Source: a bacterium (GTDB taxonomy: Bacteria > Patescibacteriota > Patescibacteriia > UBA1558 > S5-K13). From it: DNA of 63,608 bases. How positions within the stretch are numbered: the first letter of the stretch is position 1; every line of letters starts with the position of its first letter. This document shows, piece after piece, positions 2,987 to 36,454 of this stretch. The translations under genes were made by a program, and so were the position numbers. The DNA lies in the NCBI GenBank assembly GCA_029555085.1, contig JAKPTO010000030.1, positions 1 to 63,608 of the forward strand. The letters run 5' to 3'. The notes under the pieces are model-generated. The model saw only the letters and a list, made by a program, of their open reading frames with translations, was not told where the DNA came from and ran no database searches.

Positions 2987-3715
2987 ATGAATCAAGTATT
3001 TATTTATGCATTTATAGCGAGTTTCGCACTTATTTTAGGTGCTATTTTAGGCGTTTGTTTTAAATTCAGGCAAAAAGTTATTGCCTCTTTTATGGCATTT
3101 GGTTCCGGTGTTTTAATATGCGCGCTTACTTTTGGGTTAATGGAGGAAGCATTTAATCATGGTGGCTTTGATGCAGTAATTATAGGATTTTTATCTGGTG
3201 GACTTATGTTTATAATCGGTAATTATGTTTTATACTATTTTGGAGGGAGAACTCATAAAACAAAACAAACACACAAGACACATAAAAACACTAATGGAAA
3301 ATTAATAATTTTAGGTTCGGTTTTAGACGGAATTCCTGAATCAATTGCACTTGGTGTTGCGCTTTTTAATACTGGTACGAGTGGCTTACTTATGCTTGTA
3401 GCTATATTTTTATCAAATTTTCCAGAAAGTATTTCTTCTATAACAGGACTCAAAAGAGAAGAATTTTCCAATATAAAAATTATTACTTTATGGCTAATTG
3501 TTGCAATTATAAGTTTTCTTTCTGTTGTGTTGAGTTATTTGTTTTTAAATAATATTGATCCAAATATAATGGGAATTATTGAATCATTTGCCGCCGGAGC
3601 AATACTTGCTATGCTTGCTGATTCGATGATGCCAGAAGCATACGAAGAAGGTGGTTTTAGAATTGGAATTTTAACAATATTGGGATTTTTAATTGCGTTT
3701 ATAATTTCTAGATAA
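2987..3715 (+). CDS. ZIP-family divalent metal (zinc) transporter, ZupT-like
   Basis: Polytopic membrane protein with a His/Lys-rich loop (HKTKQTHKTHKN), the motif GSVLDGIPESIALG and the ZIP signature LSNFPESIS. The track ORF starts at TTG 2966. ATG 2987 lies 7 nt after an extended -10 (TGtTATAAT, 2972-2980), so the mRNA may be leaderless. Confidence 0.8.
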   Translation: MNQVFIYAFIASFALILGAILGVCFKFRQKVIASFMAFGSGVLICALTFGLMEEAFNHGGFDAVIIGFLSGGLMFIIGNYVLYYFGGRTHKTKQTHKTHKNTNGKLIILGSVLDGIPESIALGVALFNTGTSGLLMLVAIFLSNFPESISSITGLKREEFSNIKIITLWLIVAIISFLSVVLSYLFLNNIDPNIMGIIESFAAGAILAMLADSMMPEAYEEGGFRIGILTILGFLIAFIISR

Positions 3716-3719
3716 AAAT

Positions 3720-4919
3720 ATGAAAATAAAATATTCTTTTATTTTGGGACATTCTTCAGAAATTTCTTTTGCGGAAATAAAATCTCTGCTCAATTTTTTA
3801 AGTATTAAATTTTTAATTTTAGAATTTAATAAATATTTTTTAATCATTGAAACAGATTCAGAAATTGATGTTGTTTCTATTATGAAGCAACTTGGCGGAG
3901 TTATAAAAATTGGAAAAATAGAAAATGAATTTTTGATTAATGAAATTGAAAAAGCCCAAAATTTTTTATTTGATTATTTGGTCAAAAATAAATCAAATGG
4001 AAAACTTAAAATTGGTTTTAGTTTTTACAATACAAGTAGTTCATTTATGAGCTCTTTTGAAAGAGCTTCGTTTTTATTAAAGAAAAAATTAAAACAACAA
4101 AATATTCCAGTGAGAATTATCACTTCGAAAAAGCAAGATTTATCTGCTGTTATAGTAGATAAAGAAAAATTGATTGATCGCGGTTTTGATTTTCAAATTT
4201 TAGCTTTTGATGATAAATTTTTTATTACAAAAACGCTAGCTATTCAGGATTACGAAAAATTTGGAAGTATTGATTATGATAGGCCAAAAATCGATGCAAC
4301 TTCAGGAATGATGCCTCCTAAATTAGCACAAATAATGCTTAATTTATCAAAAAATAGGGATATTGTTTATGATCCATTTTGTGGTTCCGGCACTATATTA
4401 CTTATGGCTGGAGAATTGAATTATAAAAAAATAATCGGTTCAGATATTTCGAGTCGCGCTGTTTCAGATAGTGTGGAAAATATAAAATGGTATGAGGAAA
4501 AATTTAATAAAAAATTAAATTATGAAATTTTTGAAGCAGATGTTTTGGATTTGCCACAAAAAATATTAGATGAAAAAATTAATTGTATAGTAACAGAAGG
4601 ATATTTGGGGAAACCACTCAGAGGAAATGAGAGTTTGGATTTTATAAAAAAACAAATAAAAGAATTAGAAATTTTGTATTTAAAATCATTTGAGGTTTTT
4701 TCAAAAATTTCAAGTTTGAATTGTGTTATAATTTCTATGCCGGTTTTTGCTCGCGCTAAAGAGTTATTTTATTTACATATTTTAGATAAAATATCTGAAT
4801 ATGGTTTTAAACAAGAAAATTTATTAGATGATAAATATTTAAATGAAAGGCGCACATTAATTTACAAAAGAGAAGATCAAAAAGTTTATAGAGAAATTAT
4901 TAAATTTGTAAAATTGTAA
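3720..4919 (+). CDS. Class I SAM-dependent RNA/DNA methyltransferase (UPF0020/Trm11-RlmL-like) with an N-terminal THUMP-like region
   Basis: 399 aa. SAM motif I reads VYDPFCGSGTILLMA. An acidic motif II (GSDIS) and a catalytic-loop-like TEGYLGKP are also present. The substrate cannot be assigned from sequence. Confidence 0.65.
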   Translation: MKIKYSFILGHSSEISFAEIKSLLNFLSIKFLILEFNKYFLIIETDSEIDVVSIMKQLGGVIKIGKIENEFLINEIEKAQNFLFDYLVKNKSNGKLKIGFSFYNTSSSFMSSFERASFLLKKKLKQQNIPVRIITSKKQDLSAVIVDKEKLIDRGFDFQILAFDDKFFITKTLAIQDYEKFGSIDYDRPKIDATSGMMPPKLAQIMLNLSKNRDIVYDPFCGSGTILLMAGELNYKKIIGSDISSRAVSDSVENIKWYEEKFNKKLNYEIFEADVLDLPQKILDEKINCIVTEGYLGKPLRGNESLDFIKKQIKELEILYLKSFEVFSKISSLNCVIISMPVFARAKELFYLHILDKISEYGFKQENLLDDKYLNERRTLIYKREDQKVYREIIKFVKL

Positions 4920-7433: not shown

Positions 7434-10169
7434 ATGAAATATTTCAAAAACTCAAAAATGTTTTATTTTAGTGGATTTTTTATATTATTACTTTTTTTAG
7501 TAATAGTAATCCCTAATATAACTGACGCTCAATGGGTAGAACCTGGTTCTGATCCTCCACACAATAATATGCCACTTCCGCTTAATCAAAGCGCTATGGG
7601 GCAATATAAAATAGGACCACTTGTAATAGGTAGTTCTACCATAAATCCAAATTATTTATTCAGTGTTGTTGAGGGGAATTCATTATTTAGTGAAGCATAT
7701 ATTTCAAAAGCTTTAACTGTTCAAGATGGAGCCCAAATAATATTATCTGGCACTAATTCAAAAGTGAATTTATCAAATGGTTCGTCTATAAATTTATCTC
7801 CAGGCACTTCCTTAATAGGAAAATCTGACAATACAGGGAGTGCTATAAGTATTACTCATAGTGGAGATAGTTCACATAGTGGAATTTATTCTTATTCTCC
7901 AGGTGGTTATGCAATTGACACAAGAACAGATAATGGAGTTGCTTTTTTTGCTAATTCCGAGAATGGATGGTCGGTATTTGCTCAAACAAACAAGGGCGTA
8001 GCATTATATGGTAAAAGTGATGACAATTTGGGTGTTGCTGGTAGATTTGATGGAAAAGTTGTATTCAATAATTTATCTGGAACAGAACTTGCTAATATAA
8101 AATCAGGATATTTAACCTCCAAAGGTATTACAACAGTATATCCTCAGGCATTTTATCAAGTAGGAGATGACAATGTATATCAGGAAAATACCGTGGTAAC
8201 AAGTAGGTTGTGTTTTGCGTCAACAACTGCAGATGGATTACACAATCCAGCGCAACCAATGGATTGTAGATATGAATTTGGTACTGCTCCTTATGCAGAA
8301 ACTTGGTATATTTGGAGTTCAAATAATCCAAGTCTTCCAACTGGAGCTTATCAGCCAGCATCAATGAGTTTGGATGGGCTTATTTCTGTTAAATGTAATG
8401 ATGATGGTGTTCAAACAAATCCTTCAAAGGGTATAAAAATAGGAGAGGGTTCATATATATATGATAGTTCTTGTGACAGTGGCGGTGGTGGAGGAGGCGG
8501 GGGAAGTGAAATTCCTTTTAGTGAAACACTGCATATACAATCTCAGGAAGCAATTAAAATAGCTTCGACTAAATATATTGATTTAAAAATAAATCAGGGT
8601 AGTGGAAATGAAAAGGGAATGAGAATTATGAGCACTGGTGATATAGGAATAGGCAGAGATATTAATATGAATAATGATAAATCTATTGCCGTTAATCATA
8701 ATAATAATAGTAAGATTTATATTGGTAATTATTCTGATGGTTTAGGATTTGATTTTGGTACGAGTACACATGGTAATAATCTTACAGCATCATTAAGTGT
8801 TGAGGGGAGCGTAGCTGCTAATGCTTTATGTATGGGAGATGATTGTAGGAGTTCTTGGGGACAGGTTGCTTCTAATTTGTGGACATCGTCTTCCGATAAT
8901 AACAACATCTATCCTACAAATTTAAATGCAAATGTGGGAATAGGAACCACAACTCCTCAGGCGCAATTGCATGTTAATGGTGGAATATATTTAACACCAA
9001 CAACAACACAATTTGCTAAAAATATTCTTTTTAATAATTCGAATGGTGATCTAGTTTGGAGGGGTGGTATTATGTTGGTTGGGGGAGATCTAGGTCCAAA
9101 TCTACATCTAGTTTATGAGACTTGGCAAAACTCTAACGCAGCACCATGGGAGTGGGGCTATAACTCTATAAACGAAGAGCACATATATGGTAAAGGTAAT
9201 CCCAATGGTAATGCTAATTTTAACGTTTCAACTCATCCTGGTAAAAAAATATATAATTTTGCTTTTAACACAGCGTATTTAGAAGCGGGGACTAACTATA
9301 TAATATCCTTTAATGCTCAATCAACAAGCAGTGATGCGAATTATTTTGGATTTGTTTATAACATAAATACAAGCATCAATTCAGATGGAAACAGTTTAAG
9401 CGTGTTGATAATGAAAAAAATAAAAAATTTGGAAAATTATCTTCACTTTATTCCAGAATCTACAGGAATACACAATCTTGCATTTTTTAGTTTTGTAAAA
9501 GATGGAGAAATTACAATTAATAATTTTAGCATAAGAAAACAAGATTCACCGGGTAATATATCAGTTTCTGGTTTATATACTGGTATAGGTGGCTCTGAGG
9601 GGATAAAAGTAGATCCATTTGGTAATGTTGGGATTGGAACATCTGTCCCAGCCGCAGAATTACATGTAGATGGAGATGTTATAATTTCTGGTAGTCTTTG
9701 TGTGGGTGGATTGTGCGTGAATGATCTTCGTTCGCAGTTACAGTGTCCACCAAAAATCGTTCCCGTTATTATTAGTGATGGTGTTTCTCCCTCTTTTGGA
9801 TATTTAAGTTATGAAGATTGCGATAACGAGACACATATTGATCGAGTAAGAATTGAAAAACCACAAATATGTGACTCTAGTTATGCATGTAAGTATTTGG
9901 CGGGTGCTGACCATATGCATACCGCCTATGATCCATGTGTTTCGTGTGAAGCGTTTTGTAAGGTTTTAGGATTGAAGACAAGGGATACAACATATTTTTA
10001 TGAGAACATTGACTATACAGACGATTATAATCAATATGGTGATATTTTTTATTGTGATACTTATCAATGCTATTTTCCTATAGGCGGAAACATTTTGTGG
10101 GGTCCACAGTCAAGTTCGGGTTATACTGGAAGAATAACAAGACTAATGAGTTGTACGTGTTATAAATAG
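7434..10169 (+). CDS. Large secreted or anchored fibre-like surface protein with a Cys-rich C-terminal domain
   Basis: 911 aa. An N-terminal hydrophobic anchor is followed by QWVEPGSDPPHNNMPLPLNQS. The motif (N)VGIGTxxPxAxLHVxG occurs twice (nt 8931-8980 and 9621-9677), as in tail-fibre or surface-fibre proteins. There is an eight-residue Gly linker. The last approximately 150 aa contain about 14 Cys. Confidence 0.8.
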   Translation: MKYFKNSKMFYFSGFFILLLFLVIVIPNITDAQWVEPGSDPPHNNMPLPLNQSAMGQYKIGPLVIGSSTINPNYLFSVVEGNSLFSEAYISKALTVQDGAQIILSGTNSKVNLSNGSSINLSPGTSLIGKSDNTGSAISITHSGDSSHSGIYSYSPGGYAIDTRTDNGVAFFANSENGWSVFAQTNKGVALYGKSDDNLGVAGRFDGKVVFNNLSGTELANIKSGYLTSKGITTVYPQAFYQVGDDNVYQENTVVTSRLCFASTTADGLHNPAQPMDCRYEFGTAPYAETWYIWSSNNPSLPTGAYQPASMSLDGLISVKCNDDGVQTNPSKGIKIGEGSYIYDSSCDSGGGGGGGGSEIPFSETLHIQSQEAIKIASTKYIDLKINQGSGNEKGMRIMSTGDIGIGRDINMNNDKSIAVNHNNNSKIYIGNYSDGLGFDFGTSTHGNNLTASLSVEGSVAANALCMGDDCRSSWGQVASNLWTSSSDNNNIYPTNLNANVGIGTTTPQAQLHVNGGIYLTPTTTQFAKNILFNNSNGDLVWRGGIMLVGGDLGPNLHLVYETWQNSNAAPWEWGYNSINEEHIYGKGNPNGNANFNVSTHPGKKIYNFAFNTAYLEAGTNYIISFNAQSTSSDANYFGFVYNINTSINSDGNSLSVLIMKKIKNLENYLHFIPESTGIHNLAFFSFVKDGEITINNFSIRKQDSPGNISVSGLYTGIGGSEGIKVDPFGNVGIGTSVPAAELHVDGDVIISGSLCVGGLCVNDLRSQLQCPPKIVPVIISDGVSPSFGYLSYEDCDNETHIDRVRIEKPQICDSSYACKYLAGADHMHTAYDPCVSCEAFCKVLGLKTRDTTYFYENIDYTDDYNQYGDIFYCDTYQCYFPIGGNILWGPQSSSGYTGRITRLMSCTCYK

Positions 10170-30204: not shown

Positions 30205-31296
30205 CTAATATTTGAGTTCGTAGATTTGCCCTCCTAAATTTTTAATCAATCCACTTAGCTCCATTTCTGTTAAATTTGACATGACGATATTTGTATTAAG
30301 TCTACTATACTCTATGATTTTGTCAACCTTTAAAGGTCCGTCTAAGAGAATTTTATATATAATTTTATGATTTTCAGATAAAAAATTAATTTTTTGTTGT
30401 GATTTTTGATTATCTTTTATATTGTATATTTCTAATATATCATTTACATCTGTTATTATTTTTGCGCCTTGTTTTATTAGCATATTGCAACCATCTTGAT
30501 TTTTGTTAAATATATTCCCAGGACAAGTTAAAACCTCTCTATTTTCAGATAATGCAAAATTGGCAGTAATTAAAGCTCCTGATTTCATACCAGCTTGAAC
30601 TACAAAAGTTGCCTGCGATAATCCCGCAATTATTCTGTTTCTTTGTGGAAAGTTTTGTTTTTTGTATGGAAAATTTATTCCATATTCTGAAATTATGAGT
30701 CCACTTTTTTCTATTTGTTTCGCAAGATTAAGATTTGATAAGGGACTTGGTTTTGTTATATCAGATCCCAAAACAGCAATTGTTTCACCTTTTGTTTTTA
30801 ATGTTTCTATGTGAGAAAGAGAATCAATTCCATTTGCAAGTCCAGATACTATTGTAATGTTTTTTCTTGCGCAAATGGTGACAAATTTTTCAACTATAGA
30901 TTTTCCATAAGAGTCAAATTTTCTAGAACCAACCACACTTAAAAAATTTTTATTTTTTAGTAATTCTAAATTTCCTTTTGTAAAAAGCACAAGCGGAGGA
31001 GAAAAAATTTGTTTTAATAGATATGGGTAATCGTCGCTAAAATAATTTATTATTTTTATATTTTGCTTCTCGTGTGTTTCCCAAATTGTATTATAATCAA
31101 TTTTACTTTTTTGATTTATAAAATAATTTGTAAAATTTTCTGTAAATCTATTATTTATTAATTCTTTATAATTTAGGTTCCAAATTTTTTCCCAATCTTT
31201 GAATATATCAAATAATTTTTTTACTTTTTTAAAACCAATATTAGGAATTAAAAAAAGGCCCAATAAAATTTTTTTATGTTCTAGCTCCATAATCAC
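30205..31296 (-). CDS. dprA: DNA processing protein DprA (Smf)
   Basis: 363 aa. It has an N-terminal SAM-like domain, a Rossmann core (VVGSRKFDSYGK, SGLANGIDSLSH, PQRNRIIAGLS) and a C-terminal winged-helix-like tail. dprA-topA synteny is common in bacteria. Confidence 0.9.
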   Translation of the reverse strand: MIMELEHKKILLGLFLIPNIGFKKVKKLFDIFKDWEKIWNLNYKELINNRFTENFTNYFINQKSKIDYNTIWETHEKQNIKIINYFSDDYPYLLKQIFSPPLVLFTKGNLELLKNKNFLSVVGSRKFDSYGKSIVEKFVTICARKNITIVSGLANGIDSLSHIETLKTKGETIAVLGSDITKPSPLSNLNLAKQIEKSGLIISEYGINFPYKKQNFPQRNRIIAGLSQATFVVQAGMKSGALITANFALSENREVLTCPGNIFNKNQDGCNMLIKQGAKIITDVNDILEIYNIKDNQKSQQKINFLSENHKIIYKILLDGPLKVDKIIEYSRLNTNIVMSNLTEMELSGLIKNLGGQIYELKY

Positions 31297-31371
31297 TTTT
31301 CTAATTGTTATAATGTGATTATATTAGATAATTTTTTATTTTGCAAGTTTTACCCAGCTATTGACAAAAAA

Positions 31372-31400
31372 ATTTAGATATGCTATTATAATATATTATA
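31372..31400 (+). promoter_or_regulatory. Near-consensus sigma-70 promoter driving the ORF-less transcript at 31.4-31.7 kb
   Basis: -35 TTGACA (31372-31377), an exact 17 nt spacer, and -10 TATTAT (31395-31400). Confidence 0.6.
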
Positions 31401-31406
31401 ATATAA

Positions 31407-31695
31407 TAGAAAATTAAAAATATATAAAATATGCATAATTTTGCGGAGAAATTGCCATGATTCTTTAGTAATCAATTAGGCTATTTATATAAAAATATTA
31501 TTCTCCGCAGCATTATTCATATTTATATTTCTGTTCGCTAGTAGTTTTTAGTTACCCCCCTCCTGGTGGCTTTAAACGCAAGTTAGGTGGCTTTTCTTGC
31601 TTCGGCATGTGAGAGCTATTTACACTAGCGGATAGTAATATAAATATGATAAACAATCTTTTGTTCACAAGAGGTTGTTTTTTTATTAAAATTGT
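31407..31695 (+). ncRNA. Candidate structured RNA (orphan sRNA or cis-regulatory leader of the downstream lipoprotein gene); class unknown
   Basis: There is no ORF longer than 9 codons. The first hairpin is TGCGGAGAA (31443-31451) paired with TTCTCCGCA (31512-31520). A long closing helix pairs TCATATTTATATT/CGCTAGT (31528-31553) with ACTAGCG/AATATAAATATGA (31635-31660). That helix encloses a locally GC-rich core (CCCCCCTCCTGGTGGC, two GGTGGCTTT boxes, a GC-UUCG-GC tetraloop). An intrinsic terminator follows 2 nt later. Confidence 0.45.
31663..31695 (+). terminator. Rho-independent terminator ending the candidate RNA/leader
   Basis: AACAATCTTTTG-TTCA-CAAGAGGTTGTT forms 12 bp including two G-U pairs, followed by TTTTT. 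Confidence 0.75.
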
Positions 31696-31741
31696 GTTAA
31701 TTTAATACATTACGAAAATATTATTATAAAGGAGGAAAAAA

Positions 31742-32254
31742 ATGAAAAACATTTTTTTCGTGCTGTTGATAATCTTGCTTTTTTTGGTTTTATCTTGCGA
31801 TAAACCGACTCAAGTGAGATTAAGCGATGGAAATGAGGATGCAAACTTTCATGTTCCAGCATCTTCAGGATTGCTTGGAAATGTTGATCTTCACGTAATT
31901 CCTGAAACCATTCAGGGTTCAGCCATTATCCTTATTAATGGTCCTGGGGCGTCTATAGGATATGATATTCGCGATAGAAACGATTCTTCGTTTATTTATT
32001 TTGCGGATTCATATATTTCAGCCGGAGGCAAAACCATAGAAACAGGAACTGTCATACCCTACAATAAGTGGGTCCATATTCGTTTGGTGATTTACAAGTC
32101 AGGGTTATCTGGCTATGTGGTGTCATTTTTACAACTGCTTGGATTAGATTTTTTTGATTCGATTGAAGAGTATATGATCGAATCAGTTTATGAAGCGGAT
32201 TTTATGTTTGAGGGTCCGTCTCATGTGAAAAAAACTCAGTGGATTAAACACTGA
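31742..32254 (+). CDS. Putative lipoprotein (hypothetical)
   Basis: 170 aa. The signal peptide has the lipobox LVLS/C. A strong SD (AAAGGAGGA) lies 6 nt upstream. No family recognised. Confidence 0.6.
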   Translation: MKNIFFVLLIILLFLVLSCDKPTQVRLSDGNEDANFHVPASSGLLGNVDLHVIPETIQGSAIILINGPGASIGYDIRDRNDSSFIYFADSYISAGGKTIETGTVIPYNKWVHIRLVIYKSGLSGYVVSFLQLLGLDFFDSIEEYMIESVYEADFMFEGPSHVKKTQWIKH

Positions 32255-36146: not shown

Positions 36147-36422
36147 TTATTCGCCAACGCAGAATTTTTCCGCGTTATTGGAACAGTCAGTGCATCCGCA
36201 ATAAGGTTTTTTTTCATCATTGCTTGGCATGAGGCCTGTTCCCTTGCATGTTTCGCAGATGTTTCCGTCGGCTCGTTTACCAGAGCCCCTGTTATTTTCT
36301 CCAGAAGCAATCCAGTTTTCTCGAGGAATAAATGTTCGAGTATCTGGGGCTTCTTTTTGTGCATTGCCACGGGGTTTGTATACTGACTTCCCCTTGGGGT
36401 TTTTTGTATTTGGAAAAAGCAT
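36147..36422 (-). CDS. Small basic Cys-rich protein (91 aa) with a DnaJ-type CxxCxGxG motif; unknown function
   Basis: The chosen frame and start are MLFPNTKNPKGK...ICETCKGTGLM...CGCTDCSNNAEKFCVGE. GGAGG lies 4 nt upstream of ATG 36422. The gene has its own promoter at 36455-36483. The region is much more GC-rich than its flanks, so five overlapping frames are open. Confidence 0.55.
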   Translation of the reverse strand: MLFPNTKNPKGKSVYKPRGNAQKEAPDTRTFIPRENWIASGENNRGSGKRADGNICETCKGTGLMPSNDEKKPYCGCTDCSNNAEKFCVGE

Positions 36423-36454
36423 TTTTCCTCCATAATATGTATTTTTCTGAAATA

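Follow-up and report, generated by a model that had tools for sequence, protein, structure and literature searches.

A three-way-junction RNA family of Patescibacteria with an invariant anti-Shine-Dalgarno loop, encoded beside Shine-Dalgarno-led accessory genes

The bacterial contig JAKPTO010000030.1 (assembly GCA_029555085.1), whose 63,608 nucleotides (nt) are referred to here as the window, carries at 31361-31687 on the plus strand a unit in which a promoter drives about 290 nt up to the end of a terminator. Its core folds into a three-way junction and belongs to a well-supported new family of structured RNAs, which, as far as was searched, is confined to one clade of Patescibacteria and has a functional core of about 140–150 nt. 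The unit is very probably an independent small RNA (sRNA) gene. One hairpin of the junction exposes the loop sequence CCCUCCU, which is the same in all ten lineages and contains CCUCCU, the anti-Shine-Dalgarno motif of 16S rRNA. Shine-Dalgarno (SD) sequences were found on none of the core genes examined in these genomes and are concentrated on the genes that directly follow the RNA, which are called slot genes below. The reading that we favour is that a stand-alone, abundant sRNA uses its anti-SD loop to pair with the SD-led slot mRNAs; judged from the sequences, we would give this full statement a probability of roughly 0.45. The parts of the unit, and the gene that follows it, are as follows (bp, base pairs; aa, amino acids).

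31361..31389 (+): predicted promoter; −35 box TTGACA at 31361-31366, 17-nt spacer, −10 box TATTAT at 31384-31389
31437..31514 (+): P0, a lineage-specific 5' hairpin domain; outer stem at approximately 31444-31452 with 31501-31509
31513..31652 (+): conserved core of 140 nt, a three-way junction; closing helix P1 formed by 31516-31542 with 31624-31650
31544..31577 (+): hairpin P2, of 4 bp, a conserved UU/UU internal loop and 7 bp
31557..31564 (+): loop L2, 8 nt, reading CCCCUCCU and containing CCUCCU
31578..31583 (+): junction strand J2/3, GCAAGU, invariant in the alignments
31584..31622 (+): hairpin P3, 15 bp long; its conserved 2x2 internal loop reads UU/UU or UU/AU, one U is bulged, and the tetraloop UUCG is at 31601-31604
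31651..31687 (+): predicted intrinsic terminator, a 13-bp hairpin at 31651-31680 followed by U7 at 31681-31687
31694..31714 (+): conserved block TGTGTTAATTTAATACATTAC in the spacer that leads to the first slot gene
31730..32254 (+): first slot gene, a 170-aa lipoprotein (lipobox LSC), with the SD sequence AGGAGG at 31730-31735 and the ATG at 31742

The same RNA is present in nine further distinct relatives (loci L001, L002, L005, L006, L008, L011, L012, L014 and L015). The loci of the relatives were gathered by DprA homology, with one found by a DNA pattern; L003 is the same species as L002, L013 has the same sequence as L012, and the copy in L007 is truncated by its contig. The DprA proteins of the carrier loci are 54–84% identical to that of the window or to one another. 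A covariance model (R1), built on eight sequences and 140 positions, finds exactly one copy per locus with scores of 127–161 bits (155.7 bits, E = 6e-35, for the window core); none of the loci searched, nor the 63.6-kb window, has a further copy. On the core, the model gives 156 bits on the plus strand and 32 on the minus strand, many of the G-U pairs being possible on the plus strand alone. Compared with shuffled sequences, the folding energy of the region is low on the plus strand (z = -7.2 over 301 nt, against -4.0 on the minus strand), and the 140-nt core by itself reaches z = -7.56 on the plus strand.

The pairing scheme is borne out by covariation. In the ten-sequence alignment, 98.4% of the 500 pair cells contain standard pairs, and compensatory changes, in which both sides of a pair differ, are seen in 26 of the 50 pairs. 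Sliding the partners by one to three columns lowers the pairing to 33–45% with at most nine compensatory pairs, and none of 500 shuffles reaches the observed values. A preliminary description of this DNA, made from the letters of the window, had proposed a search for homologues and for covariation; the observation made there is partly confirmed by the present analysis, and its interpretation partly supported. Outside the DprA-linked loci, a metagenome scan with the loop-junction pattern matched only L003, two pattern scans of viral sequences gave one chance match in a coding region (L004) and nothing, respectively, and a phage blastn search gave no match. The RNA was not found in L019 and L020.

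The fold supported by covariation is a compact junction, with linkers of 1 nt (J1/2), 6 nt (J2/3) and 1 nt (J3/1). The closing helix P1 is a near-continuous helix of 24 bp with three 1x1 mismatches. It had earlier been described as 13 bp, a 6x6 internal loop and 7 bp, pairing 31528-31553 with 31635-31660; these partners are about 12 nt off, and the supposed loop is filled by G-U pairs. P3 is paired in 98.7% of the cells and contains seven pairs with compensatory change, including the replacement of GC-UUCG-GC by GG-UUCG-CC. The sequence motifs noticed in the core at the outset, namely CCCCCCTCCTGG, two GGTGGCTTT boxes (31566 and 31586) and the GC-UUCG-GC element, are all present, and the contrast in base composition is real: the unit has a G+C content of 40–43%, compared with 18–25% in its flanks and approximately 26–30% in the genome.

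All 11 pairs of P2 hold in every sequence, and seven of them show compensatory change. The stem takes forms such as AGUUACC/GGUGGCU, GAUAACA/UGUUGUC and AGUGACA/UGUUGCU with an unchanged loop; CCCUCCU is thus invariant in 10 of 10 lineages while the stem beneath it covaries. The sole departure from CCCCUCCU is found in L015, where the loop is UCCCUCCU, the first C being replaced by U. A CCUCC resembling an anti-SD had been remarked upon in the preliminary description, in which both its invariance and the scarcity of SD sequences in the genome went unnoticed.

The 5' hairpin P0, also noticed earlier, exists in the window as a stem of about 9 bp with GCC/GGC and GAUU/AAUC as inner pairs. Covariation gives it modest support, with compensatory change in three of 27 predicted pairs among six close relatives. 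It is absent in L008, L011, L012, L014 and L015, where the core begins 8–22 nt after the −10 box, and is therefore dispensable for the family.

SD sequences are distributed very unevenly around this RNA. Even a lenient SD-like word is found before only five of the 47 window open reading frames (ORFs) of at least 150 aa. The two strands of the window contain 52 GGAGG words, only two of which are correctly placed before a plausible start. One, at 31731, is part of the AGGAGG that lies 6 nt from the ATG at 31742, in the gene right after the RNA; the other, at 36431 (minus strand), precedes a small G+C-rich ORF at 36422 (minus). Both of these SD-led ORFs are small, G+C-richer accessory genes with TTGACA promoters of their own. 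Across the loci, the 37 core genes (der, pth, dprA, mur, topA, lytR and vut) all lack an SD, whereas among the 16 slot genes that immediately follow the RNA 14 have an SD and the remaining two have GGGAG. In L014 and L015, two accessory genes that lie immediately before the RNA likewise carry an SD.

The slot genes themselves vary. They belong to two or more unrelated families and include lipoproteins, which form two diverged subfamilies, a 140–190-aa 'ASDEE' protein, and others; no Pfam family was found in these small downstream proteins, including the 170-aa lipoprotein of the window. The gene of this lipoprotein (31742-32254) has a G+C content of 35–43%, compared with approximately 26–30% in the genome, and beyond a few Patescibacteria its closest homologues, with 50–65% identity, are in Cloacimonadota, which suggests an exchange of lipoprotein genes between these co-residents of digesters and wastewater. 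The lipoproteins of L002 and L014 share 75% identity, but the DprA proteins of these two loci only 54%; between the window and L002 the corresponding values are 35% and 84%. This mismatch indicates that the slot genes have been exchanged out of step with the genome.

The ASDEE protein is recurrent. It has 140–190 aa, contains a segment ...A(T/A)ASDEE(I/L)xSY(A/V)K..., has a basic tail and matches no Pfam family. In four loci, on the minus strand in each (L006:2144-2566, L011:3186-3617, L012:2740-3174 and L015:2465-3037), its gene comes first in the slot that follows the RNA.

The function that we propose starts from the scaffold. A sigma-70-type consensus promoter would start the transcript, with a predicted start near 31396, and the intrinsic terminator would end it. 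The RNA would fold as a rigid three-way junction, in which the 24-bp P1 and the UUCG-capped P3 form a stable frame that presents a single hairpin with the invariant loop CCCUCCU. This loop would pair with AGGAGG-type SD sequences, and the mRNAs that carry them are, nearly exclusively, those of the small, G+C-richer and often exchanged accessory genes (lipoproteins and small proteins of no recognized family) directly downstream of the RNA gene. By such pairing the RNA could control the translation of the slot genes, most likely by occlusion of the ribosome binding site, acting in trans and, on any read-through transcript, also in cis. A conserved, unpaired motif complementary to the SD in a hairpin loop, here held in ten lineages, is a feature of the C-rich or anti-SD-loop class of sRNAs. 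RsaE/RoxS and the other C-rich-loop sRNAs of Firmicutes block ribosome binding. Loop-SD pairing with control of translation, as in those sRNAs, would be the most economical mechanism here.

Several points weigh against this proposal. The loop is complementary to the AGGAGG that precedes the slot genes and ORF 36422 over only 6–7 bp, a generic match, and extended complementarity to any window mRNA was not found. Only two sites in the window read GGAGGGG or AGGAGGG. The one at 9058 falls within a coding sequence and the one at 30234 close to the dprA 3' end; as start-site targets both are implausible, and they were set aside. The slot genes may simply have inherited their SD sequences from SD-using donors, and their adjacency to the RNA gene could be due to a hot spot of recombination on its 3' side rather than to regulation; the synteny of the region (der-pth...dprA-mur-topA) is conserved anyway. 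The conservation of the junction and of the internal loops of P3 suggests a protein partner or a tertiary fold, for which the anti-SD model offers no explanation. According to PMC9297842, the 16S 3' end lacks CCUCCU in roughly half of Parcubacteria. This makes the 16S tail of the present genome a key point, and its ribosome may or may not recognise SD sequences itself.

Transcript data bear on the proposal as well. No RNA run was found that holds the window's own sequence. One wetland run labelled RNA-Seq (X25) contains a 226-nt contig of a relative that covers the RNA only and none of the neighbouring genes. The depth of this contig is 2.4, the source of the library is given as 'METAGENOMIC', and the contig seems to extend to the −10 box, so that it is an ambiguous sign of a transcript. 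Four wastewater metatranscriptomes (runs X30-X34) contain nothing from this organism.

The same loop can be read in another way, as a mimic of the 16S 3' tail which competes with the 30S ribosomal subunit for all SD-led mRNAs, or which titrates a factor that reads the anti-SD tail (for example in assembly or maturation), and does not act on specific neighbours. We regard this as unlikely, yet several features fit it. The invariant element is the anti-SD itself, with flanks that resemble ...CACCUCCUU (ACACCCCUCCUU in L011 and L012); the promoter is of consensus strength; and the junction and the P3 internal loops are conserved beyond the needs of a scaffold that presents a seed. That roughly half of Parcubacteria reportedly have 16S 3' ends without CCUCCU would also be in keeping with such a role (PMC9297842). 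However, no gene for a partner protein lies beside the RNA, the small proteins of the neighbourhood having no Pfam family, and SD-led genes are so few that 'global' and 'specific' action would nearly coincide.

That the unit is a gene of its own, as assumed in the proposal of an sRNA acting on slot mRNAs, is considerably firmer. In 10 of 10 lineages the core is preceded by TTGACA, a spacer of 16–18 nt and a TATAAT-like −10 box. All ten also have a TG extension: TGC stands before the −10 box in nine, as found by a regular expression, and TGA-TATACT was identified by eye in L015. The promoter of the window, correctly described before as near consensus, matches the consensus at 11 of 12 positions and has an extended −10 box, with TG at 31381-31382. 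A hairpin and U-tract terminator follows in nine of the ten lineages, with stems of unrelated sequence, and in L015 there is no separate terminator, a U-tract coming directly after P1. The promoters and terminators of all ten lineages are predictions by consensus. For the window, a terminator with a 12-bp stem and a U-tract had been placed so as to end at 31695, 46 nt before the SD and ATG of the lipoprotein gene; the hairpin and its U-tract are indeed there, but the stem has 13 pairs, and the U-tract ends at 31687, which leaves about 43 nt up to the SD. In ten lineages, promoter, core and terminator have thus been kept as one unit, which bears out the option of an independent sRNA that had been offered at the outset.

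The other option offered there was a riboswitch or attenuator, that is, a cis-acting 5' leader in which the junction serves as aptamer and the terminator as expression platform controlling read-through into the slot genes. In favour of a leader, the RNA is always co-oriented with the slot genes and upstream of them, its junction is highly conserved, and in the window, L001, L002, L006 and L008 no consensus promoter is seen in the interval from the terminator to the next gene. Against it, promoter-like sites are found between the RNA and the next gene in L005, L014 and L015, and in L012 the RNA is separated from the next genes by a stretch of about 500 nt, most of which is a G+C-rich element that folds strongly. 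The terminator hairpins are unrelated in sequence from one lineage to the next, which leaves no conserved anti-terminator pairing; together with the lack of a separate terminator in L015, this means that no conserved alternative pairing links the junction to the terminator. An attenuating leader was rejected on the ground that no mutually exclusive pairing between terminator and core is conserved. In addition, a P1 of 24 bp could hardly be displaced and appears too long to switch. A leader dedicated to the lipoprotein family was likewise rejected, since the RNA has no constant linkage to one gene family: the genes that follow it are of different families, and no copy of the RNA precedes the homologue of the window lipoprotein gene in Cloacimonadota (Cloacimonas). 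In L014 and L015, additional genes separate dprA from the RNA, which shows that the RNA stays with the genes on the pth side. With no match to an Rfam riboswitch in addition, we consider a leader improbable.

No relevant family of Rfam 15 was found, whether for the window searched in gathering mode or for 31250-31800 and the loci of five relatives searched in E-value mode, so that the Rfam comparison proposed with the preliminary description gives the family no known name. The matches that appeared were at chance level: Phe_leader with 29.7 bits (cut-off 55), a score due to the terminator and the AU helix, and GibS with 27 bits (cut-off 115). Among known classes, 6S, signal recognition particle (SRP), RNase P, tmRNA, 5S, T-box, hammerhead, retron msr and omega-RNA were each considered and rejected, there being no model match, signature motif or nearby partner gene (reverse transcriptase, TnpB or IscB). 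The models of 6S, SRP, RNase P and tmRNA do not match 31250-31800 even at E <= 10.

A housekeeping RNA or component of a ribonucleoprotein, such as a 6S-like binder of RNA polymerase or another essential RNA, could in principle be too diverged for Rfam, and this also seems to us a poor prospect. It would account for the single copy per locus, for the very strong promoter and high conservation in reduced genomes, and for the rod-like axis of about 40 bp formed by P1 and P3. Like 6S RNA (RF00013), the RNA is strongly promoted, largely double-stranded, about 150–200 nt long and closed by a long stem. In contrast to 6S RNA, it lacks a two-sided central bubble and forms a true three-way junction with a J3/1 of 1 nt; on this ground, and with no match at E <= 10 to its model, 6S was rejected. 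The recognisable family also seems narrow for a housekeeping RNA, with DprA proteins of the carriers at least approximately 54% identical and nothing found in L019 and L020.

The unit had been described as free of ORFs. This is correct for the plus strand, on which no ORF of at least 20 aa is found between 31390 and 31700, while the minus strand has two, of 29 and 38 aa, the latter at 31552-31668. In each of the ten sequences, the 38-aa antisense frame stays open through most of the core or the whole of it. Its ratio of nonsynonymous to synonymous change (pN/pS) is 0.80, within the range of 0.58–0.90 across all six frames; with no frame under purifying selection, a small protein-coding gene was rejected, and the openness of the antisense frame is probably a by-product of the conservation of the RNA. 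That there is no RNA gene at all, and that the region is this antisense ORF or a miniature inverted-repeat element, is extremely improbable: the frame is open as described and the 24-bp inverted repeat could be read as terminal repeats, but the frame has a pN/pS no lower than that of the others, no SD or promoter and start and stop positions that vary between lineages, the element occurs once, in a syntenic position, and neither the window nor the loci searched contain another copy, and the compensatory changes, including those with G-U pairs, fit an RNA of the plus strand.

Two groups of known sRNAs resemble the RNA most closely in what we propose for it. The first consists of RsaE/RoxS (RF01820), the UCCC or C-rich-loop sRNAs of Staphylococcus and Bacillus, and the RNAIII hairpins H7, H13 and H14. 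These share with it a stand-alone organization from promoter to terminator, a low-G+C, monoderm-type host and an unpaired C-rich, SD-complementary motif in a stable hairpin loop. There is no homology, as the RF01820 model gives no match at E <= 10, and the present RNA has one such loop instead of several C-rich motifs, in a three-way junction closed by a 24-bp helix. Moreover, its host is almost free of SD sequences, so that its potential targets are few and are accessory genes.

The second group are the alpha-proteobacterial sRNAs alpha-r14/NfeR1, AbcR1/2 and the CcsR 'cuckoo' RNAs, which act in trans and carry CCUCCU-type motifs in hairpin loops, as is seen here. In these, however, repeated CCUCCUCCC loops are presented by tandem hairpins, and the RNAs are Hfq-associated and belong to SD-using genomes. 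The RNA described here has a single loop, another fold, a host of another phylum and no Rfam match.

Patescibacteria have tiny genomes and pared-down ribosomes, and many of their lineages lack SD-led initiation. To our knowledge, almost nothing is known of RNA-based regulation in this group. Even if it proves to be an ordinary sRNA, the RNA is a candidate for a new Rfam family and marks a hot spot of exchange of surface lipoprotein genes. If the link between the loop and the SD sequences is functional, it provides a testable handle on how these bacteria deal with SD-led, often foreign, genes and on the fate of SD/anti-SD recognition in lineages that gave it up. A bolder possibility, which we hold to be doubtful, is that the RNA is one lineage's version of a widespread, pth-linked RNA of Patescibacteria that takes the anti-SD function off the ribosome. 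Such an RNA might act as a gate, silencing or licensing SD-led and mostly horizontally acquired genes of surface proteins, perhaps also phage mRNAs. Foreign genes would then be subject to a layer of RNA-based control that is coupled to a remodelled translation initiation.

In the window, the RNA is flanked on one side by dprA, a Mur-ligase-family gene and topA, and on the other by the 170-aa lipoprotein gene, pth, der and a LytR-family gene. Close homologues carry the label 'Patescibacteria group bacterium', and the DNA of the window is present in metagenomes of activated sludge, wastewater, digesters and soil.

A spacer block, (T)GTTAATTTAATAYATTAC, is conserved ahead of the slot genes in the window (31694-31714), L001, L002, L006, L008, L011 and L012. 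In L012 it lies with the slot genes, some 500 nt away from the RNA. The block may serve these genes as a promoter or operator.

Two further elements were observed in single loci. Between the sRNA terminator and the slot genes of L012 (3335-3645, minus strand) there is a very G+C-rich element of about 300 nt with a closing helix of about 20 bp and a folding z of -7.1; it has no Rfam match at E <= 1, and could be a structured RNA or a miniature mobile element. In L014, a 178-aa ORF (3416-3952, plus strand) between the slot region and dprA contains the segment ...PNHFHGII..., which resembles a motif of Y1 transposases of the IS200/RAYT type.

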